Origin: Candidatus Coatesbacteria bacterium
Lineage (GTDB): Bacteria; RBG-13-66-14
NCBI GenBank assembly: GCA_014728225.1
Contig: WJLX01000003.1
Coordinates: 14,815 to 78,814 of the forward strand
Direction: 5' to 3'
DNA: 64,000 bases
The notes under the pieces were generated by a model. It saw only the letters and a program-made list of their open reading frames with translations. It ran no database searches and was not told the origin of the DNA. Both the position numbers and the translations under genes were made by a program. This document shows positions 1,354-58,992 of this stretch, in pieces; the stretch's first letter is position 1, and each line of letters opens with the position of its first letter.

Positions 1354-3957
1354 TCACTCCAGACCGGCGAGGCGTTGGGCGGCCCGATCCTGGTAGCTTT
1401 GGGCGTAGTCGCCGTCGAGGACCTTGCGGTACTGACGACGGGCCGCCTGGGGTTGGTCGCGGCGCTCGAAGATCAGCCCGCGGCGCAGAATCGAGCGGGC
1501 GGCGTAGGAGGGATAGGCCTCGCCGTAGCTGTCGACCAGCTCCTGGAAACGGGCCAGGGCCTCGTCGAGGCGGCCGATGCCGTAGTTGAGCTCCCCGAGC
1601 CAGAACAGGGCCTGGACGGCGACGCCGGGATCGTCGGCGTTGGCGGCGGCGGCGTGATGTTCGAGGGCCCGGGATTCGTAGCCGGCCTGCTGCTCGACGA
1701 AACCGGCGAGCAAGCGGGCGCGGTAATAGAAGGCTCCGTCGTCGACGGCGGCCAGGACACGCTGCAGGGCGGCGCGGGCCGCGGCGGTCTCCTGCAGCTC
1801 GTGGTAGAGTTCGGCGGCTTCATAGTTGGCGCCGAGCCAATCGACGCTGCCCGGATACTCCAGGATGACGGCGTTGTAATGCCGCAGGGCCAGGTCGTAG
1901 TCGCCGGTCTCCCGGGCCGCCCGGGCCAGGCGGAAGTGCAGGCCGGCGCGGCCGGGTCCCGCGGGGGTTTCAGCCAGGGCCCGCCGCAGCAGCTCCAGGG
2001 CCTCGGCGGGATCGCCGCCGCGGCTGTAGGCTTCGGCCAACTCCGACGAGGCGGCGGCCAGCTCCGGCGCTTCCGGATAATCGTTGATGATCCGCCGGTA
2101 GTAGGCCACGGCGCCTTCGAGGTCGCCGGCCCGGCCGCGCTCCCGGGCCAGGTAGAGCAGCAGCTCCGGCGCCAGGTAGCTGTCCGGCCGCTGCTCCAGA
2201 TAGCTGCGGGTGGCGGCGACGACGTCGGGATACTCGCCCAGCCTCCAGGCCGCCAGCTCGGCGCCGTAGGCCGCGTCGTCGGCCACTTCGCTGAGCCGGG
2301 TGTCGGCGGCGGTCTCCTGGTAGAGGCGCCGGGCTTCACTGTACTCGCCGAGCTCGTAGCGGCAGTCGGCCAAGCGCAAGCGGGCGTAGTCGCGGTAGCG
2401 CGAGGCGGGATAGTCCTCGACGATCCGCCGGTAGACGGGCCGGGCCTCCTGGTGACGACCGGTTTCGAAGGCCGCCTGGGCGATCAGGTAGAGGGCGTCG
2501 TCGGCCAGCTCATCGGCGGGATAAGCCGCGACCAGGGCGGCGTAGTCGTTCTGGCCCAGTTGGTGCCGCCCGAGACGGACGTAGCTGCGGCCGCGGCTGA
2601 ACAGGGCCAGGGGGCGCAGCTCGCTGGCCGGGAACTCAGCCATCAACCGGCCGTAGAGTTCGACGGCCTCGGTGGTCCGGCCGGCCGCGGCGGCCAGGTC
2701 GGCCAGCTCGAGCAGGGCGTTGTCGGCCAGGGGTCCGCCGCCGTCGTAGACCGGGCGGAACAGCCCGGCGGCGCGTTGGGGTTCGCCCCGGCGCAGGACG
2801 GTCAAGGCCAGCCAGTAGCCGGCGGTGTCATCACCGGTCGGGCCGGCCACGGCGGCGAAGGCTTCTTCGGCGTCGAGAAGCGCGCCCTGGCGGAAGAGGC
2901 ACAGGCCGAGCTTGAAGCGGGCCAGACGGGCGCCTTCGCCGTAACCGGCGGCCAGCACGGCGAACTGCTCGGCGCCGACGGCGTAATCCCCGCCGCGCAG
3001 GGCGGATTCGGCCAGCAGCCAGCGCGCCGCCGTGGACCAGTCTTCGTCGTCCAGCAAGCCGGCGGCCAGGGCCTCGCCGGCGGCGTAATCCTCCTGGGCG
3101 AAGTAGGAACGCCCCAGGTAGTAGCGGGCCTCGGCGACGGCGGCGTCCTCCAGCACCTCGCTGCGGGCGGCCCGGCTCAGGCGTTCGACGGCCCCGGCGT
3201 AGTCGCCGCGCAGATAGGCCGTCAAGCCGCCCTCCAACTCCGCCCGGGCGTGGAAGGGATGGGGCCCGACGACGACGGCGGCGTCGTAGGCCGCGGCGGC
3301 CTCGGCGTAGCGGCCCTCGGCGGCCAGCACCCGGCCCAGCCAGTAATCCACCTGACCGCCGAGCTGCGGACCCGGACAGACCTCCCGGGCCCGGCGCAGG
3401 CTCTCCACGGCGGCGGCGTTGTCGCCCAACTGCACCTCGGCCTGGGCCGTGGCGAAGTACAGGCCCCACCAGACCTCGTCGAACTCGCGCTCGACGGTCC
3501 GGTAGGCCTCCAGGGCCCGGGCGTAATCCCCGGCGTCGTAGAGGCTCTCGCCGAGATTGAAGATGGCGTAGCGCCGGGTCATCGGCTTGGAGGCGATGCG
3601 CGCGGCGGAGCCGAAACGCTCGGCGGCGCGGTGGTGCAGCCCCTGAGCGGCGTAACCCTCGCCCAGCAGGAACAGGGAGCGCTCCAGGTGCCGCTGATTG
3701 GGCCGCTGGAGGATCAGCGCCTCGAGGTGGGCCGTGCCCTCGGCGGGCAGGTCGCGGGCCAGTTCGGCGGCGCCCAGCAGCCACAGCGCTTCGGGATCAT
3801 CGCGCAATAGCGCCGGCGGGGCGGCCTCGAGCTCCGCCGCCGCGAACAGGCCCTCGTCGAACAGACCCTCGGCGGGTAGGCCCGGGGCGAACAGGTCGTC
3901 CTGGGCCGCCGCAAGGACGGGCGGCAGGAGCAGCAGGACTGGAATCCATTTAGGCAT
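1354..3957 (-). CDS. Secreted tetratricopeptide-repeat (TPR) protein, 867 aa
   Basis: N-terminal signal peptide MPKWIPVLLLLPPVLAAAQ. The whole length shows many ~34-aa A/Y/L-rich TPR-like repeats (YYLGRSY, ARYYLG, AEAYSRGG). Confidence 0.75.
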   Translation of the reverse strand: MPKWIPVLLLLPPVLAAAQDDLFAPGLPAEGLFDEGLFAAAELEAAPPALLRDDPEALWLLGAAELARDLPAEGTAHLEALILQRPNQRHLERSLFLLGEGYAAQGLHHRAAERFGSAARIASKPMTRRYAIFNLGESLYDAGDYARALEAYRTVEREFDEVWWGLYFATAQAEVQLGDNAAAVESLRRAREVCPGPQLGGQVDYWLGRVLAAEGRYAEAAAAYDAAVVVGPHPFHARAELEGGLTAYLRGDYAGAVERLSRAARSEVLEDAAVAEARYYLGRSYFAQEDYAAGEALAAGLLDDEDWSTAARWLLAESALRGGDYAVGAEQFAVLAAGYGEGARLARFKLGLCLFRQGALLDAEEAFAAVAGPTGDDTAGYWLALTVLRRGEPQRAAGLFRPVYDGGGPLADNALLELADLAAAAGRTTEAVELYGRLMAEFPASELRPLALFSRGRSYVRLGRHQLGQNDYAALVAAYPADELADDALYLIAQAAFETGRHQEARPVYRRIVEDYPASRYRDYARLRLADCRYELGEYSEARRLYQETAADTRLSEVADDAAYGAELAAWRLGEYPDVVAATRSYLEQRPDSYLAPELLLYLARERGRAGDLEGAVAYYRRIINDYPEAPELAAASSELAEAYSRGGDPAEALELLRRALAETPAGPGRAGLHFRLARAARETGDYDLALRHYNAVILEYPGSVDWLGANYEAAELYHELQETAAARAALQRVLAAVDDGAFYYRARLLAGFVEQQAGYESRALEHHAAAANADDPGVAVQALFWLGELNYGIGRLDEALARFQELVDSYGEAYPSYAARSILRRGLIFERRDQPQAARRQYRKVLDGDYAQSYQDRAAQRLAGLE

Positions 3958-4321
3958 CTCGACCGCTCGAACACGGAACAGGATTAACGACTACCCGAGC
4001 CGGGAATCATACCCCGGCGAGACCGGACGGTCAACACATCGCTTTGCAACCCCGGTTAGGCCAGTAAAATCAACACGGTACAACGAACCATCCGCAACGC
4101 AACCGGCACCGGGCGATCCGGGATCGCTGCGCCTGGAACCGCTCCAGCACTTGATCTTTCCAAATCCGGTCCCCCGGGGCTCGTCCGGGGTGGATCACTT
4201 ACATTATATCACTTCGCCCGGTTCGTGTCTGGCAGAGACGACTTGTTATGCTTGCCGCGCCGTGGTAGGATACCAAGGTTTTGCGTCGCGCGAACCACGT
4301 TACGCCATTCAAGGGAGATCG

Positions 4322-5596
4322 ATGTCGACCATCGTCGTCGTGGGCGCCCAGTGGGGCGACGAAGGCAAGGGTAAAGTCGTGGACTGCCTCTCCGAGCGGG
4401 CCGATATGGTCATCCGCTTCAACGGCGGGGCCAACGCCGGCCACACCATCATCGTCGGCGACGAGGAGTACGTCCTGCACCTGGTGCCCTCGGGGGTGGT
4501 GCGCCCCCGGTCGGCCTGCGTGATCGGTAACGGCTGCGTCGTCGACGCCGACCTGCTGCTGACCGAGATCGAGGAGCTCTCGGCCCGGGGCATCGACCTC
4601 GGCCGGCGGCTGTTCGTCTCCGGCTTCGCCCACATCGTTCTGCCCCATCACAAGGCCGCCGACGGCGCCCTCGAGGACGACGCCGCCGCGCCCATCGGCA
4701 CCACCCGCCGCGGCATCGGCCCCACCTACTCCGACAAGTACGCCCGCTACGGTGTGCGGATGGAGGACCTCCTCGACGCCCGCGACCTGCGGCAGAAGCT
4801 CGAGGTCGCTTACGCCTACCGCGCCCGCTGGACCGGCTCCGGCGAGTACCCGCCCCTCGACGAGGTCTACGACCACCTGCGCTCCCTCGGACCCAAGCTG
4901 GCCCCCTACATCGTCGACACCTCCCTGCTGATCAACGATTATATCCAGCGCGGCCGGCAGGTCCTGCTCGAGGGCGCCCAGGGCACCCTCCTCGACGTCG
5001 ACTTCGGCACCTACCCCTTCGTCACCAGCTCCAACCCCGTGGCCGCCTTCGCCGCCATCGGTTCCGGCATCGGCCTGGGCCGCATCGACCGCTGCCTCGG
5101 CGTGGTCAAGGCCTACCTGACCCGCGTCGGCGAGGGGCCCTTCCCCACCGAGCAGACCAACTCCGTCGGCGACTACCTGCAGGACAAGGGTCACGAGTTC
5201 GGCCGCACCACCGGTCGCCCCCGACGCTGCGGCTGGCTCGACATGGTCCCGCTGCGCCTGGCCGCCCGGGTCAACGGCTTCGACGGCCTCGTCGTCTCCA
5301 AAATGGACGTCCTCGACGACCTCGACGAGATCCCCGTCTGCCGGGCCTACCGCGTCAAGGGCCGCGAATACGACGAGATGCCCCTACCGGTAGCCCTGCT
5401 GGAAGACGCCGAGCCCGTCTACGAGACCCTGCCCGGCTGGAAGACCGACACCTCGGGGATCACCTCCTGGGACGACCTGCCCCCCGAGGCCCGCGACTAC
5501 CTCAACTACATCTCCGCGGGCTGCGGCGTCCCCGTCACCGCCATCAGCGTGGGCCAGCGTCGTGACCAGATCATCTGGATCAAGTGGGGGATTTAG
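4322..5596 (+). CDS. purA: Adenylosuccinate synthetase
   Basis: MSTIVVVGAQWGDEGKGKVVD P-loop, followed by NGGANAGHT and other conserved PurA blocks. The true start is the ATG at 4322; the track ORF 3698..5596 carries a spurious N-terminal extension that runs through the TPR gene. Confidence 0.93.
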   Translation: MSTIVVVGAQWGDEGKGKVVDCLSERADMVIRFNGGANAGHTIIVGDEEYVLHLVPSGVVRPRSACVIGNGCVVDADLLLTEIEELSARGIDLGRRLFVSGFAHIVLPHHKAADGALEDDAAAPIGTTRRGIGPTYSDKYARYGVRMEDLLDARDLRQKLEVAYAYRARWTGSGEYPPLDEVYDHLRSLGPKLAPYIVDTSLLINDYIQRGRQVLLEGAQGTLLDVDFGTYPFVTSSNPVAAFAAIGSGIGLGRIDRCLGVVKAYLTRVGEGPFPTEQTNSVGDYLQDKGHEFGRTTGRPRRCGWLDMVPLRLAARVNGFDGLVVSKMDVLDDLDEIPVCRAYRVKGREYDEMPLPVALLEDAEPVYETLPGWKTDTSGITSWDDLPPEARDYLNYISAGCGVPVTAISVGQRRDQIIWIKWGI

Positions 5597-5730: not shown

Positions 5731-7854
5731 ATGATTCGTATATTGTTGCTGGTTATCTGTATTGTGTCCGGTGGCAGCCTCGCCGAGGAGGCTGTGCAGA
5801 CCGACTGGTCCGGCGGCGGCGGTGGCGATGATCCCGTCGACGACTGGGGGGTCGGCTTCGAGGACGGCCAGGATGTCAGTTGGCTGGCCCTGCCCGGCGA
5901 GCTGCCCCTCTCGTCGACTCCCAAGACCCCGGTCGAGCACGCGCTGGGTTCGCCCGAGGGGCCGCTACACATCGATGTAGCCGATGTCGATGGTGACGGT
6001 GACACTGATGTGCTGGCGGCGGTCGAATGGGACGAATGCATCTGTTGGTATGAGAATGAAGACGGCTTGGGCACCAACTGGGACTGTCACGTGATCCAAT
6101 TTGAATACGTCCTGGCAAGCTGCGTTCACGCCGCCGATATCGATGGTGATGGAGACACCGACGTGTTGGGAACCTCGGCCAACAACCAGGAAATTAACTG
6201 GTGGTCGAACGATGACGGTATGGGTACGGAATGGACCGGCTATTTGATCAAGGGCGGTTTCTGGGGCGCCAGTACCGTCCATACCGCCGATCTGGACGGT
6301 GACGGTGATCTGGATATTATGGGTGGCGCGGTGACCGTCGACGACCTGATCTGGTGGGAGAACGAAGACGGCACGGGAACGGAGCTGACAGAGCATATGA
6401 TCGACGATTCCTATTGGAATCCACATTCGGTACGCGCCGCCGACATCGACGGTGACGGCGATCTGGATCTGCTGGCCGCCTCCGGAGGAGATGACGACAT
6501 CAACTGGTGGTCCAATGATGACGGTCAGGGTGGTAGTTGGACCGAGCACCTGGTCGACGGCAGCTTCGACGGCGTCTGTTCCATCAGCGTGGTCGATATT
6601 GACGGCGACGGCGATCCGGATGTCGTCGGCGCCGGTCCGAACGACGCCAACGACATCCGCTGGTCGGAGAACCTGGAGGGCACGGGGGAAACCTGGGAGC
6701 TTCACTATATCGACGATAACTTCGATGACGCTGTGTATGCCCACGCCGCCGATATTGACGGCGACGGAGACTTTGACGTTGTCGGCGCGGCACGGGGGGC
6801 CGACGAAATAACCTGGTGGTCCAACGACGGCCAGGGCGTCTCGTGGACCGAGTACAACGTCACTGGAGGGTACTCCAAAGCCTGTTGCGCCGTAACCGGT
6901 GATATCGACGGCGACGGCGATCTGGACGTTATCGGCGCCGGGTATGAAGAAAATTCGATCGATTGGTGGGAGGTCACCGAGTTCCTCTCCTCGGGCGAGC
7001 TGACCTCGACGGTGCTGGACACCGATCCAGGTGGCGACGCCAACGGCACGGGCTACGAGTGGGGTGTCATCACCTGGGAAGCCGCGGAGCCCGGTTCCAG
7101 TGAGTTGAAGGTCTACGTCCGCGCCGCCGACGATCCGGCCGGGTTGGGGGATTGGATGCTGGTGCCCGAATCCGGCGTCGACCTTTCCCCCTACGCCGGT
7201 GACGGTTGCCGCTACCTGCAGTACAAGCTGGAGCTTGACTATGGGACGGCCGAGGAATCACCCATCATGCAGGAACTGAGTGTCAACTGGGAAGTCGCCA
7301 GCGGCCTCGACGGCGTCGAGCTGGCGGCGTCGCCCGCCGATGACGGTATCCTGCTGGGCTGGACGGTCAGCGGCGACGTGCCTGCGAGTGTCCGCGTCCT
7401 GCGCGGGGGGAGCGACCCCGTCGCCGTCAGCGGCTCGCTACCCGGTGAGACCCGCCGCTGGCTGGATCGGGGCGTCGAGCCCGGCGAGAGCTACGTCTAT
7501 TGGCTGGAGGCCACGGATAACGCGGGCCAGGTGCAAAGATTCGGGCCGACGGCGGCTGTTGTCGCCCCGGAGCAAACGAACCGGCTGAGCCTGGACGAGC
7601 CCTGGCCCAATCCGGCGTCGGGAAGCGTCAGCATCGCTTTCACGCTGCCGCAGGCTCAGCGCGTCAGCCTGAGCGTCTACGACCTGGCCGGGCGCCGGGT
7701 GACCACGCTGAGCGAGGGCGAACTGCCCGCCGGGCGGCACGAGGTCGCCTGGAACTGCGCCGCCGCGGCCGCCGGGGTCTATCTGCTGCGGTTGGAGACG
7801 CAAGGCGCGGCGCTCAGCCGCCGGGTGGTCGTCGGCCGGGTCGTCGGCCGGTAG
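5731..7854 (+). CDS. Secreted FG-GAP/VCBS-repeat protein with T9SS-type C-terminal sorting domain
   Basis: AGGAGG RBS 6 nt before the ATG at 5731. Signal peptide, then at least seven repeats of [AV]DIDGDGDxDV (FG-GAP-like Ca-binding repeats). C-terminal ~85 aa (PNPASGSVSIAFTLPQAQRVSLSVYDLAGRRV...AGVYLLRLE) match the Por secretion system C-terminal sorting domain pattern. Confidence 0.75.
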   Translation: MIRILLLVICIVSGGSLAEEAVQTDWSGGGGGDDPVDDWGVGFEDGQDVSWLALPGELPLSSTPKTPVEHALGSPEGPLHIDVADVDGDGDTDVLAAVEWDECICWYENEDGLGTNWDCHVIQFEYVLASCVHAADIDGDGDTDVLGTSANNQEINWWSNDDGMGTEWTGYLIKGGFWGASTVHTADLDGDGDLDIMGGAVTVDDLIWWENEDGTGTELTEHMIDDSYWNPHSVRAADIDGDGDLDLLAASGGDDDINWWSNDDGQGGSWTEHLVDGSFDGVCSISVVDIDGDGDPDVVGAGPNDANDIRWSENLEGTGETWELHYIDDNFDDAVYAHAADIDGDGDFDVVGAARGADEITWWSNDGQGVSWTEYNVTGGYSKACCAVTGDIDGDGDLDVIGAGYEENSIDWWEVTEFLSSGELTSTVLDTDPGGDANGTGYEWGVITWEAAEPGSSELKVYVRAADDPAGLGDWMLVPESGVDLSPYAGDGCRYLQYKLELDYGTAEESPIMQELSVNWEVASGLDGVELAASPADDGILLGWTVSGDVPASVRVLRGGSDPVAVSGSLPGETRRWLDRGVEPGESYVYWLEATDNAGQVQRFGPTAAVVAPEQTNRLSLDEPWPNPASGSVSIAFTLPQAQRVSLSVYDLAGRRVTTLSEGELPAGRHEVAWNCAAAAAGVYLLRLETQGAALSRRVVVGRVVGR

Positions 7855-7876: not shown

Positions 7877-8120
7877 CCGGGCGGGATTGAAATCCCGCCC
7901 CGACGGGAGCGCTTCTTAGGCCTTCGAGAAACCGCAGGGGCGGCTGTCACCAGCCGCCCCTGGCTCATGGCGTCAGGCGGGATGAAAGCGCCGAGAACGG
8001 AGGACCGGCGCGCTTGTTGCGACGACGGACCCCGGCGGGGTCCGTCGACAATGCAACAACCTGGTGCCGGTGCTGCTTCGCAGCATTGGAGTACGACGAG
8101 GTCGTAGCTCCGGCCCGGCG
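7877..8120 (+). repeat. Conserved structured non-coding module, copy A1 (second copy at 17586..17827)
   Basis: ~240-bp block alignable to 17586..17827, with a near-identical stretch GGTGCCGGTGCTGCT[TC]CGCAGCATTGGAG. It contains several hairpins; substitutions between the two copies are compensatory and include G-U wobble pairs valid only on the + strand. Confidence 0.45.
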
Positions 8121-8158
8121 AAACGCGAATACCCCGTCGGGGTGTCCGAACCCCAACT

Positions 8159-8192
8159 GAAAACCGGGCCCGCCGTTACGGTCGAGCCCGGT
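8159..8192 (-). terminator. Putative intrinsic terminator of serA
   Basis: On the minus strand the hairpin ACCGGGCTCGACCGTAACGGCGGGCCCGGT is followed by TTTCAG, immediately 3' of the serA stop. Confidence 0.4.
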
Positions 8193-8214
8193 TGTCGTCT
8201 TGCGCGACGCGAAG

Positions 8215-13415: not shown

Positions 13416-13488
13416 GATCAACCCGACCGCGGACGAGACCTTTGAAAAACCGCCGAGTCTGCGGCGGATGCTTAGGCCCGACGAGCGG

Positions 13489-13572
13489 CCGGAACCGGCA
13501 CGGTTTTTGCATCTCGGCGACCGTTGGAGCGAGGATAACGGTCCGCCTCCGCAAAAACCGTGCCGGTTCCGG
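13489..13572. repeat. Palindromic intergenic element, copy 1 (inner 22-bp IRs; extended imperfect palindrome about 13437..13623)
   Basis: CCGGAACCGGCACGGTTTTTGC, then core ATCTCGGCGACCGTTGGAGCGAGGATAACGGTCCGCCTCC, then GCAAAAACCGTGCCGGTTCCGG. Outer arms GACCTTTGAAAAAC ... GTTTTTTCAAAGGTC. The track mis-reads it as a small ORF. Confidence 0.85.
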
Positions 13573-13704
13573 CCGCTCATCAGCCTGAGGTTGCCGCCGG
13601 GCGCTCCGGTTTTTTCAAAGGTCTCGTCCGGGCGTTCCCTACCCGGCGCCCCCCCCTTTTGCTACAATACGGGTGAGAGAACCATCCAACAGGGAGGCAG
13701 GGCG

Positions 13705-15051: not shown

Positions 15052-15128
15052 CATGACGGAGTCGACCGCCATTGTCCCGTCCGGCGACCTTTGAAAAACA
15101 GCAGGTGCGCACCGGTGAGCCCAGGCGG

Positions 15129-15212
15129 CCGGAACCGGCACGGTTTTTGCATCTCGGCGACCGTTGAAGCGAGGATAGCGGTTCGCCTCCGCAAAAACCG
15201 TGCCGGTTCCGG
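15129..15212. repeat. Palindromic intergenic element, copy 2 (extended palindrome about 15085..15271)
   Basis: Same 22-bp inner IRs and core as copy 1 (core variant ...CGTTGAAGCGAGGATAGCGGTTCGCC...). Outer arms CGACCTTTGAAAAACA ... GTTTTTCAAAGGTCG. Confidence 0.85.
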
Positions 15213-15334
15213 CCGGTCGTTGGACCGAGCCGGCCCCCCCGCAGGGCGCTCCGGGTGTTTTTCAAAGGTCGCCGTTATCGCCAACAGGCCGGGTCGCGCG
15301 ACCCGGCCTGTTGGCGCAGTGGCAGACTCGGTGT

Positions 15335-17436: not shown

Positions 17437-17585
17437 GCGTTCCTCCGACGGTTTCTCCTCGATTGTCATTTTAACAGGGCTGTCCATTCGCCGCCAGCGT
17501 TGCACTGTTTCACCGGTATCTGCGCGGCCCGTTGCGTGTAGATGACCCTGTTGGGCGGGGCGTGGGATGAATCCCCCGACCTCGT

Positions 17586-17827
17586 CGCGGGCTGGATTAC
17601 AATCCCGCCCCTGCAGGGGCGCGTCGCACGCCATCGAGAACCCCGTAGGAGCGGCTGTCCCCAGCCGCCCGGTGTTCATAACCTCAGACGGGTGCGAACC
17701 GCCGAAAACAGAGGATCGGCGCTTTTCCCGCCCGCGGTCGTCAACCGAGGACCTCGGGCGGGAAGCTGGTGCCGGTGCTGCTCCGCAGCATTGGAGTTAC
17801 GACGGCATCGTAACTCCGGCCCGGCGG
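17586..17827 (+). repeat. Conserved structured non-coding module, copy A2
   Basis: Aligns with 7877..8120 and shares the hairpins GGGC[GT]GGATT..AATCCCGCCC, [CG][AT]GG[GA]GCGGCTGTC.CCAGCCGCCC, TGCTGCT[TC]CGCAGCA and GAGT(T)ACGA...TCGTA(A)CTC. It abuts the IS1595-like remnant on its right. Confidence 0.45.
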
Positions 17828-17847
17828 CGCCGGCAGCGAAACTAGCA

Positions 17848-18396
17848 GGGAGCATCACAGGAGTTGAACATCAGCTGTTGCAGTTGGGTTCTTCCAGCGG
17901 CGTGAACGGGTCCGTCAACCCGCCAGCGACGCGGCGGGCAATGTGGCGGGGCGGAGCGGATCGCGGGAGCGGCGCGCCGAGGGACGTCAAAAGGCGAGGG
18001 TCGCGGCAAGCCGTTCAAGCGTCGTCCCCGGGGTGCCGCAACGCGCCGCCGCCGGAAAAAACGCGGCGAGACAGCCTGTCTGTTGCGCCTCGGTGTCCCG
18101 ACCGTCCGAGCCGCCGCTCGCCGGGCCGCGCTGGACCCGACCAGCTACACCGCTACGCCGACGGCCGGCGGGTCTATAAGAAACTGTAAATCAACGGCTT
18201 CCACCACGGGGCCTCAATGACGACAAGACCCCGGTCGATGGCCGGCGACGGCAAACAGCCGAGCAGAGCTTCGGCCTCTTCATCCCTGAAAGATCGTTCC
18301 GCTTCAACCCTCGAGACGCCGATAACACGCTATCCATTCTCAGGAGCAGACTTCGCGCTTGGTCATAGCTCGGTCATAGTTAGGTGATAATCCCCC
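17848..18396 (+). mobile_element. Degenerate, internally deleted IS1595-family element (miniature, non-autonomous)
   Basis: Aligns with 50272..50938. Encodes a zinc-ribbon/HTH N-terminal fragment and a frameshifted C-terminal fragment (...YADGRRVYKKL*INGFHH...ERSFRFNPRDADNTLSIL). Right end GGTGATAATCCCCC. Inserted about 30 bp from the tRNA-Asn 3' end. Confidence 0.6.
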
Positions 18397-18426
18397 GAAA
18401 AAAACGGGACCCCCGCGGGGGTCCCG

Positions 18427-22357: not shown

Positions 22358-22927
22358 CCGCACTCCTTTCTCCTTTTCCGGGGTTGCGCTGAGCGCCGGG
22401 CTCCCCCCGGGGCCGTCACAGTTATTGCAGGCCGGCCGACCCGGCGGGGCCGGGTCGGCGGCGCAATAACCTGCGCCGGCCCCTGCGGTTTTTTTGTTTA
22501 CCACCCCATGCCGCATCGTCGGCGCCGGGATGGAAAAAAGCCGTCGGTGCGCGTGGCGCGGACCGACGGATACCCATCCCGTTGCTGCTCGATTGTGGTT
22601 GAAGCTCGCGCAGGCCAACCCGCCCGCTGGTTTACGGGCGGTGGATGCGGTGGGTGGCCTGGTGGTTTTGGGTCGGCCCGTTACAGCGACCCCTCATCCA
22701 GCCCACCCTCCGTCGGTTGGGCTACGCGTTGAACATGTAGGGCGGCTCCCGTTGGGGTTTTGTTACTTTTCCGTGGCGACGTCTCCGCGGCGACTTCGTT
22801 GGTGCGCGTCGGGGTTGGGGTGTCGCGAACGGCTGATCTTGATGTGGACAATATAGCAGGAAGCCGGAGGTATGGCAAGGGGGCGGTGGATTGCCGCTGT
22901 GCGGAATAAAGATGGGGATCGTCTACC

Positions 22928-23646
22928 GTGTTCGGACCGCTACCTGTCTGTAACCTGCTGTTAACATCCGGGATGGGCTGTGATATTCTGCCACGAAAAG
23001 GCGATCAACAAGTGGCGGAAAACCGAGCAACCGACCGGCCCAGTTGTTGCCCAAAATGTAACCATAGAACGCACTATAAGTTGGCCGACGGCAGATGTAA
23101 ATGCAAGAATTACGGAAAGAATTATGCCCATCGACCAAGATATGCAAAGCTATCTTGCAAACCTATCTCAAGAGAAGCAAAAAGAGATAGCTCGCTTATT
23201 ATGGCTGCGCGTTCCGACGGCCGCCGCGGCCAGGGCGGTCGGCGTATCCGCTAAAACAGCAGCCAAAGGTGCAATCGACTTACAATCGACTTACAATCGA
23301 CTTACAATCGACCAAGGGAGCGCCGCGCCGCCCCTCGCCAGGCCGCGCTCGACCCGACCGTCTACCCCGCTATGCCGACGGCCGGCGGGCCTGGACGAAA
23401 CTGTCGCTCAACGGTTTACACCACAAGCGGATCAAGCATGACAAGACACGGGTTGACGGCAAGCAACGGCCTCGAGAGCTCCCGGGGCTACGCCAAACGA
23501 CGGCTAAAGGCCGCTCACGGCGGCTTAAAGGCAACTTCAGGCGCTGTATCAGAGAAGGGTCGTTCCGCTTCAAGCATCGTGACGACGAAAACGCGCTCGA
23601 CTACCCGCAGGATGCACTGCTCAATTGGTCCGCTCAGGTTACATGA
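22928..23646 (+). mobile_element. Low-GC IS1595-family transposase remnant (frameshifted N-terminal zinc ribbon/HTH plus C-terminal DDE tail); boundaries approximate
   Basis: CPKCNHRTHYKLADGRCKCKNYGKNY zinc ribbon, then frameshift, then LRVPTAAAARAVGVSAKTA HTH, then 11-bp tandem repeats, then YADGRRAWTKLSLNGLHHKRI...FRFKHRDDENALDYPQDALLNW. GC content is markedly lower than surrounding genes. Confidence 0.6.
23273..23312. repeat. Tandem repeat, about 3.5 copies of the 11-bp unit ATCGACTTACA
   Basis: CAATCGACTTACAATCGACTTACAATCGACTTACAATCGACC sits at the junction between the N- and C-terminal transposase fragments. Confidence 0.7.
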
Positions 23647-23683
23647 TGCCTAAGGATTATACTCGGCCTTTAGGGAGGTAACG

Positions 23684-24265: not shown

Positions 24266-24821
24266 TGTTTATCACGGAGGGCCATCCACCGGGCCGGCAT
24301 GCTTCTTGCATTCCGCGGGCCTTCCTTCCCGGAAGGCCCGCGGGCAACAAGCCCGCCGGCCCTCTATGACTCGTCGCTGCCCCCACCGCTGGTCGCCGTA
24401 TGGAGACGTTGCGGGGAGGCGTTGCGGGATAGCGGCTTGAGGACAAGCAGGGAGGCATCTCGCCGCTTCTGGACCATAGCGCCGGGAGTGGAGACCGTTG
24501 TTTCAAATCGCGGGGAGGGCTGCTGGGGGACGTCGTCGTCGTCGGTTTTACCGACGGCTTTCGACAGCGGGCGATTATCAGTTCTAACTGGTTGGTGTTG
24601 AGTGGTATAGGGCTAGATGCTCGCTGATGGGATCAGCAGTGCCGGCAGTCGAGCATACAGGTCCGGGTTGTTGGGTTCGGTTTGACGACATTGACGCCCC
24701 TCGAGCTCTGCCGCAACAACACAAATCAAGGGGCTTGACCGGTTTGCTTCCGGCTGCCTTTCTAGGAACGGATCATAGAACTGGATTGGCCCGTTGCCGT
24801 TACGTGATCCCATAAAGAGAA

Positions 24822-29895: not shown

Positions 29896-30066
29896 GCGTT
29901 TACCCCGTTGACAGGTGAGGCCGCCACCGTCGACGGCGGCCGGTTTATCGCTGGACGATTAGTTCCCCGGTATTATACCGTATTTTTACCCTTTTTGTTT
30001 CCATCGCCGCCGCCGTCCGTCAACACGACCCACCCGCAGGTCCGGGCGGCCCGAGCCGCCGCGCCG

Positions 30067-30151
30067 CCGGAACCGGCACGGTTGTTGCATCTCGGCGCCC
30101 GTGACGGATACTGCTAACGGTCCGCCTCCGCAACAACCGTGCCGGTTCCGG
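30067..30151. repeat. Palindromic intergenic element, copy 3 (variant; extended palindrome about 30011..30218)
   Basis: Inner IRs CCGGAACCGGCACGGTTGTTGC ... GCAACAACCGTGCCGGTTCCGG, with a symmetric T/A change on both arms. Outer arms CCGCCGTCCGTCAACACGACCC / GGGTCGTGTTGACGGACGGCGG are unrelated to the other copies but still self-complementary. Confidence 0.8.
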
Positions 30152-30265
30152 CGGCGTGTTTCCCGGTCCGTGGTTGGTGAGGTGACGGGATTGCGGGGTC
30201 GTGTTGACGGACGGCGGGGTCGCTGGACCCCGCCGTGTTTAGCTGTTGTTCGGGCGTGCTGGGGA

Positions 30266-33978: not shown

Positions 33979-34066
33979 GGGTAAAAGTATAACAGAGTTG
34001 CCGGGTTATCGTCTTCGGGCGGGAGACCTTTGCCGAACACCCCGCACGCTCCACAGCCGCCGGCCC

Positions 34067-34150
34067 CCGGAACTGGCACGGTTTTTGCATCTCGGCGACC
34101 GTTAGCACGGCTGTAACGGTCCGCCTCCGCAAAAACCGTGCCAGTTCCGG
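34067..34150. repeat. Palindromic intergenic element, copy 4 (extended palindrome about 34017..34212)
   Basis: IRs CCGGAACTGGCACGGTTTTTGC / GCAAAAACCGTGCCAGTTCCGG with a symmetric C-to-T/G-to-A change. Outer arms GGGAGACCTTTGCCGAA / TCGCGCAAAGGTCTCCC. Lies in the divergent rluB-crcB intergenic region. Confidence 0.8.
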
Positions 34151-34337
34151 GGGCCGGGGCGGGGCTGGTTGACGGCCGCGGGCGAGTCGCGCAAAGGTCT
34201 CCCGCCCGGGGCGAAACCGCGGGATGGATTGGTCTGGGTATCGCCTTGCCCCGTGGTCGACGGCGATGCTATAGTCGCCGGAAACCCGCCAAGGCTTGCC
34301 GGTGGTTTGCGTATTCCGTTTGACGAGGAGCATATCT

Positions 34338-39060: not shown

Positions 39061-39229
39061 GGCACCTCATCCTCGGCTGGCGGACATTTTGAACAGTGTA
39101 GCATCGCCGCCGGCCCGCGGCAACCCCCGTTCACAGGCTTCGATCACTCCGCTTACTCGACACCGGCACCCACGTCGGCCCCTGGAAAAACAGCCCTCGC
39201 CAACCGCGACGAGGACCGCCGCCCTGCGG

Positions 39230-39313
39230 CCGGAACTGGCACGTTTTTTGCAGCTCCTCACCCGCACGGCCGACGGTAACCTTACGCTATCGCAAAAAAC
39301 GTGCCAGTTCCGG
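39230..39313. repeat. Palindromic intergenic element, copy 5 (divergent core; outer IRs 39179..39357)
   Basis: IRs CCGGAACTGGCACGTTTTTTGC / GCAAAAAACGTGCCAGTTCCGG with a different core. Perfect outer IR CCCCTGGAAAAACAGCC / GGCTGTTTTTCCAGGGG. Confidence 0.8.
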
Positions 39314-39381
39314 CCGCGCGGGTCCGCCGGGGTGGTGCAAAGGCTGTTTTTCCAGGGGAAGTGGAGCCGCCGCACAATCGG

Positions 39382-43169: not shown

Positions 43170-43283
43170 GCCCCGCGGCTTTCCCGCTCCGACCAAACCC
43201 GTCGCCGGGGCGCAAAAACGCCGCTCCGGGAGACCGTTGAAACCCCTGCGGCGCTGATCACCCGCACCGGATAACCACGCCCG

Positions 43284-43367
43284 CCGGAACCGGCACGGTT
43301 TTTGCATCTCGGCAACCGTTGGAGTAAAGATAACGGTTCGCCTCCGCAAAAACCGTGCCGGTTCCGG
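43284..43367. repeat. Palindromic intergenic element, copy 6
   Basis: Canonical IRs. Core shows a compensatory A/T pair (GGCAACCGTT ... AACGGTTCGCC). Outer arms GGGAGACCGTTGAAACCCCT / AGGGGTTTCAACGGTCTCCC. Confidence 0.85.
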
Positions 43368-43574
43368 CGGGCAGGTTGCTGGGTCGTTGTCGGGAGGGGT
43401 TTCAACGGTCTCCCGGAGGGTGTGTGAAGCCCGGTGCGAGGCGGATTAACAACCGCGCAGGCTGGGCCGCTATTCCAGACTAGTCGCCGATGGCGGGTTT
43501 GAAGCCCCCGATGCTGGGCGATATGGGAAAACAGCGGCCCGCGGGCCGCTGTTTACTGTTGTGCACGATCGAGG

Positions 43575-48004: not shown

Positions 48005-48073
48005 TTGGGGTGGTCCGCCACGGTGGCCGACCTCTGAAAAACGGCCGGCGACGACTGCTGGACCCCGCCCGCG

Positions 48074-48157
48074 CCGAAACCGGCACGGTTTTTGCATCTC
48101 GGCGACCGTTGGAGCTGGTATAACGGTCGGCCTCCGCAAAAACCGTGCCGGTTTCGG
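48074..48157. repeat. Palindromic intergenic element, copy 7
   Basis: IRs CCGAAACCGGCACGGTTTTTGC / GCAAAAACCGTGCCGGTTTCGG with a symmetric G-to-A/C-to-T change. Outer arms GACCTCTGAAAAACGGCC / GGCCGTTTTTCAGAGGTC. Confidence 0.85.
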
Positions 48158-48286
48158 CGCGGGCTATCCGGCTCTTGCGCCGGGTCGGCAGGGCCGTTTT
48201 TCAGAGGTCGGCTTGCGGCGTCGGAATAATAGAACGGACGGGTCCGGCGGACCCGTCCGTTGCGTTCAGGTGTTTCAGCGATTTGA

Positions 48287-50271: not shown

Positions 50272-50938
50272 GGGGATTAAGGAAGGGATCATCACAGGAG
50301 ATGAACATCAGCTATTGCAGTGGGGTTCTTTAGCGGTGTGAACGGGTCTGTCAGCCCGCCACCGACGAGGGGGGCAATGTGGCGGGGAAGAGCGGGACGG
50401 GGGAGCGGCACGTCAGGTGTCCAAGATGCAATTACCGCTGCGGCAAGCTGTTCAAGCGTCATCCCCGGGGGCGTCGCAACGCGCCGCCGTCGGCAAAACG
50501 CGGCGAGACAGCGCGTCTGTTCCGGCTCGGCGTCCCGACCGTCCGAGCCGCCGGGGATTTGGGCAGCCGGCGCAATACGGCATATCGCTACTAGAAGCTA
50601 ATCCGCCGGCGCCGCACCGCCGCTCGACAAGCCGCGCTGGACTCGATCGTCTACACCGACGGCTGTAAGGCCTATAAGCAACTGTCACTCAACGGCTTCC
50701 ACCACAAACGCATCGACAACCAACAGGATTTCGCCGATGGACGGACACATAGCAACGGGATCGAGAACTTCCGGGGCGACGCCAAGCGCCGCCTAAAAGC
50801 CACCTGGAGGATTCAGGCTTAACTTCAGACTCTTGATCACTGAAAGGACGTTCAGCTTCAGCCATCGAGACGGCGAAAACGTGCTAAACCACCTCGGGAG
50901 CATACTGCGCGCTTGTTCATAATCAGGTGATAATCCCC
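50272..50938 (+). mobile_element. Miniature, internally deleted IS1595-family element with terminal inverted repeats GGGGATTA ... TAATCCCC
   Basis: Encodes the zinc-ribbon/HTH N-terminus CPRCNYRCGKLFKRHPRGRRNAPPSAKRGETARLFRLGVPTVRAAGDLG. This is followed almost directly by the C-terminal ...YTDGCKAYKQLSLNGFHHKRIDNQQDFADGRTHSNGIENFRGDAKRRL..., then a frameshift, then ERTFSFSHRDGENVLNHLGSILRA. About 90 aa carrying the first catalytic D are missing. Confidence 0.7.
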
Positions 50939-51013
50939 TAAGGAAAAGGGGCGACTGAGGACAGTCGTCCCTGTGGTTGGGTTTCCTTCACCGCCAAAGC
51001 GCCGGCGGCCGGG

Positions 51014-52936
51014 CTAGAAGGCGAGCTCGACCCCCAGAACGAAGCGGCGCGGTCGGCGCGGGTAGTTACGGTCGGCGTAGTCGTTGCCGAAGGCGGCGGG
51101 GACATCGGAATCGGTCAGGTTTTCCAGGGCGCCGAAGATGGTCAGGTGCTCGCCGAAGGCGTAATCCAGCAGGACGTCGACGTCGTAGGCCGCCGGGAGT
51201 CGCTTGGTGAGCATGCCGACGACGGGATATTCGCTGTAGTCGGGGTAGTAGGCCCGGCGCTCGGCGGTCCAGTTCAACTCCAGGTCGACGAAGGAGCAGA
51301 CGGCCAGGCGGGCCTGGAGTTGGTGCCGAGGTACGAAGGCCGCGCGGCGTTCGACGACTTGGAAGACGTCGCCGCTCTCCCAGTCGGAATAGACCAGCTC
51401 GCTGTGACGCTGGACGGCGTCGGTGTAGGTGTAGAACAGGCGCAGGGAGCTCCACCGCACTCCGGCGGTGGCGCCGAGGACGACCTGCTCGTTGACATTG
51501 ACCGGTCGCCAGCGGCCGTCGGTGTCGGGTTGCCAGGCGATGAGGTCCGTCGTCTCGCGGTAGAAACCGCCCAGGGTCAGAGCCGCGCCGCCGCCCAGCT
51601 CGGGCAGGTCGACGGTCAGGTCGAGCTGGCGGGCCGTTTCCGGTTCCAGCTCGGGATTGCCGGCGTCGGGCCAGTAGAGGTCGTTGAGGGTCGGAGCGGC
51701 GAAGCTCAGCCCGCCGGCCAGGGCCGCCTCTAACCAGTCGCCCGTGTAGCGCAGCACGACGCCCGGTGACCAGTGCAGGCCGAAGTCGGTGTGTCTGTCC
51801 AGGCGCAGGGCGGCCTCGAGGGCTACGGGAGACCAGTCCGCCCTGACGCGCAGCCGGCCGCCGAGGTTATCCACCGCGGGTCGCCAGGTGGTGATCGTGG
51901 TGGTGCCGGCGCCCCCGGGATCGAAGGGTTCGCTCCAGCGCGTACTCTCGAGCTCGGCCTCGAGGTCGTCGGTGCGGTAGTCGAGAGCGCCCGAGACGCT
52001 CAACCAGTCCGTCGCCCGCCAGCTCGCACCCAGGGAGCCGAAGTAGGTCGTGGTGAGGTAGCGGCTTTCGTCGTGATAAATGCCACCGAACTCGTACCAC
52101 TGGAGGTAGTCCAGCTCCAGTTCGCTCCAGCGGAAATCAAGGCTCAGCTCCAGCCTCCCCAGCTCCAGCCCGGCGTGAATACCGATATAGGTCTCGTGCT
52201 CCTCCTGGCGGTCGAGCAGGCTGCTGACCTCGTCGTCACCGAAGGTCGGGATGTCGTCGACGGCCGGTCGCGGTCCGGGAACACCCTGGTCCAAGCCGCG
52301 CATCCCCACCAGACCGCGCAGCAGCAAACCGCCGTCCTCGTATTCCAGGCCGACCCGACCACCCGGGCGCTCACAGTCGGAATTGGGCCGCCGGCCGGCG
52401 TACTCCTCCAGCCAGGCGTCGACGATCAGGTTCGGCTCGCCGGTGCGTTCGCTGAAACCGAAGTGCTGTTCGCCGTTTTCACCGACGGCCGCCGAGAACG
52501 AGGTCCGCTCCGAGTTGGTGACGATGTTGATTACCCCACCGACGGCGGCGCCGCCGGCCAGGTTGCCCGCCGCGCCCCGACTGATCTCGATCCGCTCGAC
52601 TATCCTCAAGGGGACGGCGTTGAGGTCGACGGTGCCGTTGACGGCGGAATTCAGCGGCACGCCGTCGAGGAGTACGCGCACCTGGCGGCTGGGCGCGCCG
52701 CGCAGGCTGACCGTGGCCAGACCCCCGGCGACGCCGGTTCGCTGGATCAGGACGCCGGGAACGCCTTCCAGCACGTCGGTCAACTCCCGGGCCCCGGCGG
52801 CGGCGAGCTCGTCGCCTTCGATGACGAACCAGTCCAGCTCCTCGAGGCCACCGAGGTAGCGGGTGCTGACCTCGAGAGCCGCAGCGGCCGTCGTCAGCGT
52901 GATCAACAACAGGATGAGGGCTGGACGGTTGCGCAC
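51014..52936 (-). CDS. btuB: TonB-dependent outer-membrane receptor, BtuB-like (vitamin B12 transporter)
   Basis: Signal peptide, plug domain (DVLEGVPGVLIQRTGVAGGLATVSLRGA) and a C-terminal beta-barrel ending in F. A cobalamin riboswitch lies in its leader. Confidence 0.7.
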   Translation of the reverse strand: MRNRPALILLLITLTTAAAALEVSTRYLGGLEELDWFVIEGDELAAAGARELTDVLEGVPGVLIQRTGVAGGLATVSLRGAPSRQVRVLLDGVPLNSAVNGTVDLNAVPLRIVERIEISRGAAGNLAGGAAVGGVINIVTNSERTSFSAAVGENGEQHFGFSERTGEPNLIVDAWLEEYAGRRPNSDCERPGGRVGLEYEDGGLLLRGLVGMRGLDQGVPGPRPAVDDIPTFGDDEVSSLLDRQEEHETYIGIHAGLELGRLELSLDFRWSELELDYLQWYEFGGIYHDESRYLTTTYFGSLGASWRATDWLSVSGALDYRTDDLEAELESTRWSEPFDPGGAGTTTITTWRPAVDNLGGRLRVRADWSPVALEAALRLDRHTDFGLHWSPGVVLRYTGDWLEAALAGGLSFAAPTLNDLYWPDAGNPELEPETARQLDLTVDLPELGGGAALTLGGFYRETTDLIAWQPDTDGRWRPVNVNEQVVLGATAGVRWSSLRLFYTYTDAVQRHSELVYSDWESGDVFQVVERRAAFVPRHQLQARLAVCSFVDLELNWTAERRAYYPDYSEYPVVGMLTKRLPAAYDVDVLLDYAFGEHLTIFGALENLTDSDVPAAFGNDYADRNYPRRPRRFVLGVELAF

Positions 52937-53119
52937 GGCGATCCTCCCCTTTGTCGGTCCTGGATGCTATAATTCACCGTTGAGACACAGCAAACCCCGC
53001 CCGTGGGGCCCGTTGGACGGCGTGATCGTTCACACCGGCCGGACGCGGGGCGGGGGGAGGATCGGGGTAACATGATACCGGTCATGCCAACCTCCTCGGA
53101 TCGCGAAGGGGGTGGGGAC

Positions 53120-53280
53120 CGGAGCCGGGTATCCTGGCTGACGACGCGGCGTCGTTGACGCCCCGGAACGGGCGCCTTCCCGGAAGCGAAGCTCCAGTGG
53201 CGTCTGCCCGTTCCTCGTCGAACACAGTGGCGCGACCGCGGCGGATTCTAACCGCCTTCCCCGGGTCGGCTTAGGCCGAC
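53120..53280 (-). ncRNA. Cobalamin (B12) riboswitch
   Basis: Minus-strand read: CCGGGGAAGGCGGUUAGAAUCCGCCGCGGUCGCGCCACUGU ... GCCACUGGAGCUUCGCUUCCGGGAAGGCG ... GUCAGCCAGGAUACCCGGC. This matches the cobalamin riboswitch core (GGGAA..GGUG.AA.UCC..GCGGUC.CGCCACUGU) and the B12-box (AGYCAGGAnAC). It lies about 190 nt upstream of the btuB-like start. Confidence 0.75.
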
Positions 53281-53356
53281 CATCCGGTCAGATATGGGAG
53301 ACCATTATCCCACCGCGGTCAATCATCGTCAAGGCCCCCCTGCAGAAGGAGGATCA

Positions 53357-54169: not shown

Positions 54170-54244
54170 CGACACGCGCCGTCCGCGCCACGCCGCGACC
54201 CCGGCCGGAGAACGGCCGAGGCGCCGCCTGTGCAGTTTCGCGCC

Positions 54245-54329
54245 CCGGAACCGGCACGGTTTTTGCATCTCGGCGACCGTTTGGACGGCTGAAAACGGTC
54301 GGCCTCCGCAAAAACCGTGCCGGTTCCGG
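54245..54329. repeat. Palindromic intergenic element, copy 8
   Basis: Canonical 22-bp IRs. Core ATCTCGGCGACCGTTTGGACGGCTGAAAACGGTCGGCCTCC. Confidence 0.85.
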
Positions 54330-54484
54330 GGCGTGGTCGGTCGAGGGGGGGACGGGTCGTGGTGCTGTGGCCGGGGTCGCGGCGGGCCGAGCTGTGGGTC
54401 TGGATCGGCGAAATGGCGACGGATTGTGGATAAACCGACCGGGGAGCCGCGGCTCCCCGGTCGGTTCGTTGGGTAACGGTGGGT

Positions 54485-58305: not shown

Positions 58306-58392
58306 TGGTGCCGAGAGCCGGACTCGAACCGGCACGGGGGTCAGCCCGGCGGATTTTAAGTCCGCTGCGTCTACCAATTCCGCCATCCCGGC
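58306..58392 (-). tRNA. tRNA-Leu (anticodon TAA)
   Basis: GCCGGGA-TG-GCGG-AATTGGTAG-ACGC...GCGGA-CTTAAAA-TCCGC, long variable arm, TTCGAGT T-loop, and encoded ACCA end. Anticodon loop CTTAAAA. Confidence 0.85.
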
Positions 58393-58488
58393 AGGTGGTG
58401 GCATTATAGTACCGGCGACGCTCCCGGCGCAAGCCGCCGCGACCGCCGCCCCGCCCGCCCGATCACCCGGATCGGGTCGAGACGGACC

Positions 58489-58572
58489 CCGGAACCGGCA
58501 CGGTTTTTGCGGAGGCCGACCGTTACAATCGCTCCAACGGTCGCCGAGATGCAAAAACCGTGCCGGTTCCGG
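58489..58572. repeat. Palindromic intergenic element, copy 9 (core in inverted orientation)
   Basis: Same IRs. Core is the reverse complement (GGAGGCCGACCGTTACAATCGCTCCAACGGTCGCCGAGAT). Confidence 0.85.
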
Positions 58573-58710
58573 GGTCCGGGAGGCCGGCGTTATGGAGCCG
58601 CGGGGCGGCGGTCGGGGGCGGCGGGACGGTCCCGGAGGGTGGAGGAGCTCCAGCCGAAACTAGGGGGGGACGGTTGATCTAGGCACGGATAAAGCGCGGC
58701 CATGAGATAA

Positions 58711-58926
58711 ACCGGGCGGGGGCCCGATCCGGCCCCTTGCCGGTGGAGGCGGCCGTCGATAGCGCAACGTATAACGAGAAGCCGCGGCAGAAAAACTGGG
58801 CGGGGGTCTGATCCAGCCCCTTGCCGGTGGAGGCGGCCGTCGACAGCTCAACGTATAACGAGAAGCCGCGGCAGAAAAAATGGGCGGGGGTCTGATCCAG
58901 CCCTCCCCCCCGCCCGTGGAGGCGGC
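58711..58926. repeat. Three tandem ~85-bp repeats, each ending in the last 10 nt of tRNA-Cys (TGGAGGCGGC); the third unit is continuous with the tRNA
   Basis: Units start about 58711, 58796 and 58881. Shared GGGCGGGGGTCTGATCCAGCCCCTTGCCGGTGGAGGCGGCCGTCGA[TC]AGC[GT]CAACGTATAACGAGAAGCCGCGGCAGAAAAA. Confidence 0.65.
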
Positions 58927-58992
58927 ACCCGGACTCGAACCGGGGAATGGAGGATTTGCAATCCTCTGCCTTAGCCGCTTGGCTATGCCGCC
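58917..58992 (-). tRNA. tRNA-Cys (anticodon GCA)
   Basis: GGCGGCA-TA-GCC-AAGCGGCTAA-GGC-A-GAGGA-TTGCAAA-TCCTC-CATTC-CCCGG-TTCGAGT-CCGGG-TGCCGCC-T-CCA. Confidence 0.85.

Follow-up and report, generated by a model that had tools for sequence, protein, structure and literature searches.

A duplicated intergenic hairpin module of Candidatus Coatesbacteria and its resemblance to REP, BIME and REPIN sequences

MITE-like repeats (ERIC/IRU, Correia/NEMIS, RUP and BOX) are intergenic elements of 100-200 nt that form long hairpins and are co-transcribed with their neighbours. They differ in presence and absence among related genomes, as does one palindrome family of the DNA described here, the P family. 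REPINs combine inverted conserved repeats with a spacer, form hairpins in single-stranded DNA or mRNA and commonly carry compensatory changes (PMC3116915). BIMEs are mosaics, the composition and linkers of which differ by locus and strain (PMC3333891).

The DNA analysed here (the window) is a stretch of 64,000 nucleotides from a Candidatus Coatesbacteria contig (WJLX01000003.1). Its G+C content is 66.5%, and the SerA protein that it encodes is 83%, 82% and 76% identical to the SerA proteins of three Candidatus Coatesbacteria MAGs; an NCBI protein with 100% identity to it carries a Coatesbacteria annotation. The window contains two copies, A1 and A2, of a module in which four short GC-rich hairpins (a-d) flank one long two-tier central hairpin. 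The module is most likely an ordinary yet undescribed case, in a candidate phylum without cultured members, of a known class, the palindromic or mosaic repeats between genes. The more specific reading, by which intergenic palindromic repeat units make up a lineage-specific mosaic similar to REP, BIME and REPIN sequences, is preferred here by a narrow balance of probability.

Architecture and conservation of the module

A preliminary description of this DNA reported a non-coding module of ~240 bp that occurs twice, and the present analysis agrees; the best bounds are those given for A1 and A2 in the table. The copies can be aligned throughout, as had been stated (BLAST E = 5.7e-34, ~73% identity across 244 columns), and the similarity is recovered over the same spans by MAFFT. 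The 31-mer CTGGTGCCGGTGCTGCTYCGCAGCATTGGAG is found exactly in both copies and at no third site in the window, with 0 matches expected from shuffles. Hairpins a, b, c and d are all present in A1 and in A2, together with the long central hairpin. These are the only two full-module copies within the 64 kb, and hairpins a and b do not recur independently elsewhere in the window, which counts against the palindromic-mosaic reading.

A protein-coding reading of the module was rejected. The peptide stretch WCRCC.AALE is common to A1 and A2 by hand reading and lies in A2 within the ORF 17542-18189. The 1-nt indel in hairpin d shifts the frame, so A1 and A2 cannot encode a shared protein, and the central part contains indels and is unalignable. 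A tRNA-like T-arm reading of GGGATTGAAATCCC was likewise rejected, with no tRNA or tmRNA call at either copy.

The Rfam comparison proposed in the preliminary description returned no family for the module at gathering thresholds or at E<=10, where A1 and A2 gave chance sub-threshold matches only and one P element gave nothing relevant. At gathering thresholds, the whole window yielded only three tRNAs and a cobalamin riboswitch. The riboswitch (53112-53295, minus strand, 71 bits) is located upstream of the gene for a TonB-dependent receptor (51014-52936, minus strand). BLAST searches of plasmid and phage collections found nothing similar to the module. The exact module motif has 0 matches in genome_contigs and 2 chance matches within coding sequence in metagenome_contigs, a scan that misses a JGI contig (L092, Ga0401366_0111394) in which the motif is present. 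In viral_contigs, 0 matches were obtained for the module motif and 0 for the P motif. The negatives of all these motif scans are weak, and that of metagenome_contigs does not demonstrate absence from JGI data.

Conservation between A1 and A2 is concentrated in the short stems. The stems of hairpins a-d are changed at 4 of 67 positions (6%) and their loops at 7 of 16 (44%), with 27 of 93 positions changed in the linkers and 29 of 68 in the central hairpin. The difference between stems (4/67) and loops plus linkers (34/109) has a Fisher p value of 5e-5 and shows the stems to be constrained. The account of a repeated, non-coding, hairpin-structured module is supported. Hairpins c and d are almost identical across A1, A2 and L092; the loop of hairpin d reads GAG, CGGCA or TTC in these three copies, and its stem is kept. 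Since the stem sequence, and not pairing alone, is conserved at an overall divergence of 27%, a sequence-specific constraint is suggested. Such a constraint would also be compatible with an RNA or a site of protein binding and counts against the palindromic-mosaic reading.

Table. Positions of the module copies, their hairpins and related or neighbouring features in the window
Feature	Position	Strand	Remarks
Module copy A1	7877-8125	.	alignment with 17586-17842; flank shared with L001 from 8112 onward
Hairpin a of A1	7879-7900	.	GGGCGGGAT-TGAA-ATCCCGCCC; in the window at A1 and A2 only
Hairpin b of A1	7935-7962	.	CAGGGGCGGCTG-TCAC-CAGCCGCCCCTG; perfect 12-bp stem
Conserved linker	7985-8011	.	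AAAGCGCCGAGAACGGAGGACCGGCGC; kept in A2, more loosely in L001, L002 and L092
Central hairpin of A1	8005-8072	.	outer arms CCGGCGCGCTTGTTGC / GCAACAACCTGGTGCCGG; perfect inner hairpin and 3-nt AAT bulge
Hairpin c of A1	8067-8089	.	core TGCTGC-TTC-GCAGCA (8071-8085); optional outer pairs include two G.T
Hairpin d of A1	8089-8110	.	GAG-TACGAC-GAG-GTCGTA-G-CTC
serA intrinsic-terminator-like hairpin	8155-8200	-	T run on the minus strand; also in L001
Module copy A2	17586-17842	.	alignment with A1; orthologous IS-free locus in L092
Hairpin a of A2	17589-17610	.	GGGCTGGAT-TACA-ATCCCGCCC; internal T.C mismatch
Hairpin b of A2	17648-17670	.	GGAGCGGCTG-TCCC-CAGCCGCCC; A.C mismatch or bulged A
Central hairpin of A2	17715-17775	.	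arms 17725-17742 and 17747-17764; sequence unlike A1, same fold
Hairpin c of A2	17772-17794	.	
Hairpin d of A2	17794-17816	.	
IS1595 copy	17843-18400	+	degraded, frameshifted; inserted between module and tRNA-Asn terminator, outside the module
IS1595 remnant	~23000-23650		degraded, frameshifted; no module beside it
IS1595 remnant	50284-50950		degraded, frameshifted; no module beside it
Diverged two-tier hairpin	22402-22494		P model 30.6 bits
Diverged two-tier hairpin	24291-24362		P model 26.1 bits
P copy	13435-13625		
P copy	15084-15272		
P copy	~30010-30210		
P copy	~34023-34215		
P copy	~39175-39370		
P copy	43230-43412		
P copy	48027-48211		
P copy	~54190-54390		
P copy	~58435-58630		core inverted
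P copy, probable tenth	from 63950		

Relatives of the module and the P family

Other Coatesbacteria MAGs have related forms of the module at serA and at the tRNA-Asn/nnr locus. The set of hairpins depends on the locus and the genome, and the loci have evidently exchanged sequence. The order in A1 and A2 is a-b-linker-centre-c-d. L092 has b'-linker-centre-c-d and lacks hairpin a, L001 has X-b'-linker-centre, and L002 and L089 have linker-centre, where b' denotes hairpins akin to b that are preceded by GTAG or GCAG and are found in L001 and L092. L001 shares the FG-GAP/serA arrangement of the A1 locus, and its flank is identical with the window from 8112. The spacer of L001 aligns over a GTAG-preceded b-like hairpin, the linker and the central two-tier hairpin and contains neither c nor d. 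In L002 and L089-L091, the linker and central hairpin alone stand directly after serA, again with c and d missing. Hairpin c is confined to A1, A2 and L092 and is missing from L001, L002 and L089.

L092 carries its copy at the nnr/tRNA-Asn locus, the locus of A2. Its Nnr is 96% identical to that of the window, as is its tRNA-side flank. At this locus, b', the linker, the central hairpin, c, d and the tail run straight into the tRNA terminator. The 5' part of the L092 copy shares 57% identity with A2, which is its positional orthologue, and 68% with the serA copy of L001; for the same 5' part, the identity of A1 and A2 is 67%. The region upstream of nnr in L001's own genome contains no module. 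More distant Coatesbacteria, with SerA 76-77% identical, have other synteny beside serA and are uninformative.

Identical SerA proteins are encoded by L089-L091 and L001, and the downstream genes differ. In L089-L091, serA is followed directly by convergent lpxC, and in L001 the two genes are separated by an FG-GAP/T9SS gene and a short Por_Secre_tail ORF. The FG-GAP/T9SS gene, being missing between serA and lpxC in L089-L091, is thus variable among close strains.

A small hairpin, X (GGGGCGTGGGATGAATCCCC), is located at 17553-17581, just upstream of A2, and a similar one lies in the serA spacer of L001 (~5249-5285). With its core GGGAT(T)GAA(A)TCCC, X is similar to hairpin a, a hint that units have been duplicated. 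It is on these X- and b'-like relatives in L001 and L092 that the view of hairpins a and b as repeat units is based.

The central hairpin of the module follows the arm pattern CCGGCxCGxTTxTTGC ... GCAAxAACCxxGxCGG. A1, A2, L092, L001 and L002 retain these arms and the fold, and their inner hairpins are completely different. On the minus strand, the A1 centre reads ACCGGCACCAGGTTGTTGCAT, similar to AACCGGCACGGTTGTTGCAT in the P copy at 30073. A covariance model built from 9 P cores scores the nine P copies at 72-114 bits, the A1 centre at 19.9 bits (E 0.04-0.15) and the A2 centre at 15.9 bits (E 0.28). The hairpins beside serA score 30.1 bits in L089, 26.2 bits in L001 and 24.9 bits in L002, and L002 also contains a true P element at 3947-4051 (59.7 bits). 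Membership of the module centre in a P superfamily is plausible but not strong. The link is statistically weak for A1 and absent for A2, and this counts against the palindromic-mosaic reading.

The same model also identifies the two diverged two-tier hairpins of the table, in which perfect inner hairpins are enclosed by P-like arms (CCGTCACAGTTATTGC... and CCGGCATGCTTCTTGC..., respectively). The first has a T run after it on the + strand, though without a preceding + strand gene, and the second stands directly after an MntP-like gene.

The P family is a more striking feature of the window than the module. It comprises nine full imperfect palindromes of ~190 nt and the start of a tenth, all intergenic, at a density of ~1 per 7 kb. 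The inner arms (CCGGAACCGGCACGGTTTTTGC and its complement) are conserved, and the outer arms (GAGACCTTTGAAAAAC) are conserved and inverted. The core is asymmetric, with the same orientation in eight copies and the inverse orientation in one. The mid-arm segments are copy-specific yet self-complementary, and each variant of the outer arm is mirrored in the two arms of the copy that carries it. The minimum free energies of the P elements range from -128 to -164 kcal/mol.

In the alignment of the nine P cores, 95% of cells are paired and 13 of the 40 pairs change on both sides, a level reached by 0 of 500 shuffles. In the main helix, all variable pairs change two-sidedly and none on one side only, a strand-symmetric pattern. 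Two-sided change of this kind is expected of a DNA palindrome, unlike typical RNA evolution via G.U intermediates. Mismatches in the outer 75 nt of the arms are mostly transversions (G.T 22, A.C 11, other 94), and a wobble-type bias sought in these counts was not convincing. An orientation argument from GC skew was also dropped, the skew being flat and uninformative. In two more distant relatives (L083 and L085), the gdh-lipase spacer lacks the P copy that the window has at 13435-13625.

Beside the inverted P element, two tandem 84-nt units of 92% identity occupy 58705-58872. They sit between the genes for tRNA-Leu (58306-58392, minus strand) and tRNA-Cys (58917-58992, minus strand).

Strand, genomic setting and alternative explanations

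The preliminary description had read G-U wobble and compensatory changes in hairpins a-d as marks of a + strand RNA. This claim is unsupported, in that the strands fold equally well and the reading of two of the four cases was wrong. In hairpin a, the supposed U-G pair is T17593 opposite C17606 in A2, a U.C mismatch on both strands. The A.C of hairpin b in A2, if taken as a wobble, equals G.U on the minus strand. The two G-U pairs of hairpin c are identical in both copies and therefore carry no comparative information, and they require that pairing to be chosen over a competing outer stem of the central hairpin. The change in hairpin d, described as fully compensatory, consists of one inserted T and one G/A substitution, by which A2 gains a T-A pair (one extra pair) where A1 has a bulged G.

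Each copy folds better than its shuffles on either strand, with z scores of -5.2 (+) and -7.0 (-) for A1 and of -5.5 (+) and -4.7 (-) for A2. RNAalifold of A1 and A2 gives -92.4 kcal/mol on the + strand (covariation term -4.6) and -91.1 kcal/mol on the minus strand (covariation term -5.0), and the consensus fold of five sequences that include relatives is almost strand-neutral (-47.7 versus -47.2). The consensus fold of A1, A2 and L092 gives -86.2 on the + strand versus -79.3 on the minus strand; this edge of ~7 kcal/mol to the + strand with three sequences counts against the palindromic-mosaic reading. No sigma-70-like promoter or canonical terminator frames A1 or A2, although the sigma-70 pattern may not be that of this phylum. 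There is no good evidence for the module as a dedicated + strand RNA gene.

These observations bear on the possibility that A1 and A2 are paralogous copies of a genuine gene for a small non-coding RNA, or of an sRNA derived from a 3' UTR, with hairpins a-d and the centre as its functional fold. Such an RNA would agree with stems much more conserved than loops and linkers, with the strong folding of both copies relative to shuffles, with the near identity of c and d in three copies and with the slight + strand edge, and likewise with a sequence that is non-coding and matches nothing in Rfam. It is nevertheless unlikely. The loops are the least conserved parts, which is unusual since sRNAs act via loops or single-stranded seeds, and long, perfect GC stems are characteristic of hairpins of the REP or terminator kind. 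Moreover, the hairpin set shifts among loci and genomes, to the extent that two thirds of the length differ in the positional orthologue from a close relative. The lack of framing promoter-like or terminator-like sites, the equal folding of the strands and the failure of the wobble arguments on inspection weigh on the same side.

The genomic setting of A1 is as first described, with an FG-GAP/Por_Secre_tail gene (secreted; T9SS tail; stop at 7854) on one side and convergent serA on the other. On the serA side lies the terminator region that belongs to the convergent genes serA-serC. A2 is situated upstream of nnr (minus strand), between the nnr upstream region and an IS1595 remnant that it adjoins, as had been noted, with the end of A2 meeting the start of the IS at 17843. 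Past this remnant come a terminator hairpin and then tRNA-Asn (minus strand). Each copy comes straight after a minus-strand terminator, that of serA for A1 and that of tRNA-Asn for A2, and A1 in addition follows the FG-GAP gene of the + strand.

The second copy could also be a passive one, a functionless product of segmental duplication or gene conversion of the terminator-rich serA spacer, with the likeness of A1 and A2 reflecting common descent of ordinary terminator hairpins. The serA locus indeed looks ancestral, since linker and centre lie beside serA in at least four relatives. The window is rich in GC-rich hairpins after gene ends (low-scoring P-model matches), and both copies lie just past a minus-strand terminator. 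Passive copying is improbable all the same. The same type of module is kept at nnr/tRNA-Asn in a second genome, L092, and the stems are selectively conserved. The presence of c and d at both loci, and their absence from the serA copies of other species, argue for exchange between loci and not for a single duplication.

The three IS1595-family copies of the window keep traces of a Zn-ribbon and of the DDE_Tnp_IS1595 domain. The tie to this mobile element raised in the preliminary description, whereby the module would be part of or carried by IS1595 (an IS end, a passenger or an IS-associated guide or antisense RNA), is very improbable despite the exact junction at A2, because no IS lies beside A1, the remnants at 50284 and 23000 have no module and, contradicting this reading, the module of L092 occupies the A2 locus without an IS and directly next to the tRNA terminator. 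The module is thus neither inside IS1595 nor always with it; the IS inserted later, and the module is independent of it. Neither Y1_Tnp/RAYT nor any other intact transposase is encoded among the ~50 ORFs of the window, which counts against the palindromic-mosaic reading.

Taken together, the P-like central arms, the mosaic content, the stem/loop pattern and the strand neutrality make REP/BIME-like repeats a better fit than a dedicated sRNA. For such repeats, the core of the module would be a long two-tier hairpin with arms related to the P family. Hairpins a and b would join this core at one end and c and d at the opposite end, and with the linker they would form locus- and genome-specific combinations. 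The copies may spread or homogenise through inter-copy recombination or through a trans-acting enzyme that works on hairpin DNA. Transcribed as tails of neighbouring genes, the hairpins would act as 3'-end structures, which could serve as back-up terminators, insulators or exonuclease barriers. The role of the module, if it has any, is probably that of 3'-end hairpins on transcripts of neighbours that run past the adjacent terminators. It is doubtful that the module and the P palindromes form an undescribed self-propagating REPIN-like system of Coatesbacteria with nested two-tier hairpins, or that the c-d module is a + strand structured RNA at convergent gene ends.

If the palindromic-repeat reading is true, the module warns against taking hairpins and seemingly compensatory changes in a duplicated spacer as sufficient evidence of an RNA gene. 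It would then also be a marker for strain typing and for assembly problems in Coatesbacteria MAGs, and it would direct attention to the denser P family, the maintaining enzyme of which would merit a search. If a discrete transcript exists, the module would be a new clade-specific sRNA.

Comparison with described repeat and RNA systems

With multi-stem-loop sRNAs such as the 6S and Rsm families in Rfam, the module shares a length of ~250 nt and several hairpins conserved between copies. Unlike 6S and Rsm-type sRNAs, it has no Rfam match, conserved loop motif, promoter, terminator or strand signal. MITE-like repeats differ in another respect, as the module has no known parent IS, and neither terminal inverted repeats nor a target-site duplication is seen at the A1 and A2 boundaries by reading of the sequence.

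REPINs are the REP doublets of Bertels and Rainey (2011). The P family and the module centre both consist of two inverted conserved arms of ~16-22 nt and a less conserved spacer, and each folds as one long hairpin with frequent compensatory changes. The P elements depart from REPINs in a second, outer pair of conserved arms ~60 nt further out, which brings their total length to ~190 nt, and the module centre matches the P arms in part only.

The differences from the REP and BIME sequences of enterobacteria and pseudomonads (REP/RAYT) concern size, number and enzyme. The module is ~250 nt long with five hairpins and has two full copies in the 64 kb, where a and b are not separately repeated, and no RAYT gene is found among the window ORFs. 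Per 64 kb, hairpins a-d have 2 copies and the P-type hairpin 9-10, all of them extragenic. The 5' GTAG of REP/BIME sequences precedes hairpin b in A2 and b' in L001, with GCAG in A1 and L092, and hairpins a, c and d have no such motif. Other features agree. The module is intergenic, and such repeats often lie between convergent genes or after gene ends, as A1 and A2 do. Differences between copies retain complementarity. Short GC-rich imperfect palindromes are joined with variable linkers into mosaics, the unit content of which differs by locus and strain in the module as it does in BIMEs (PMC3333891).
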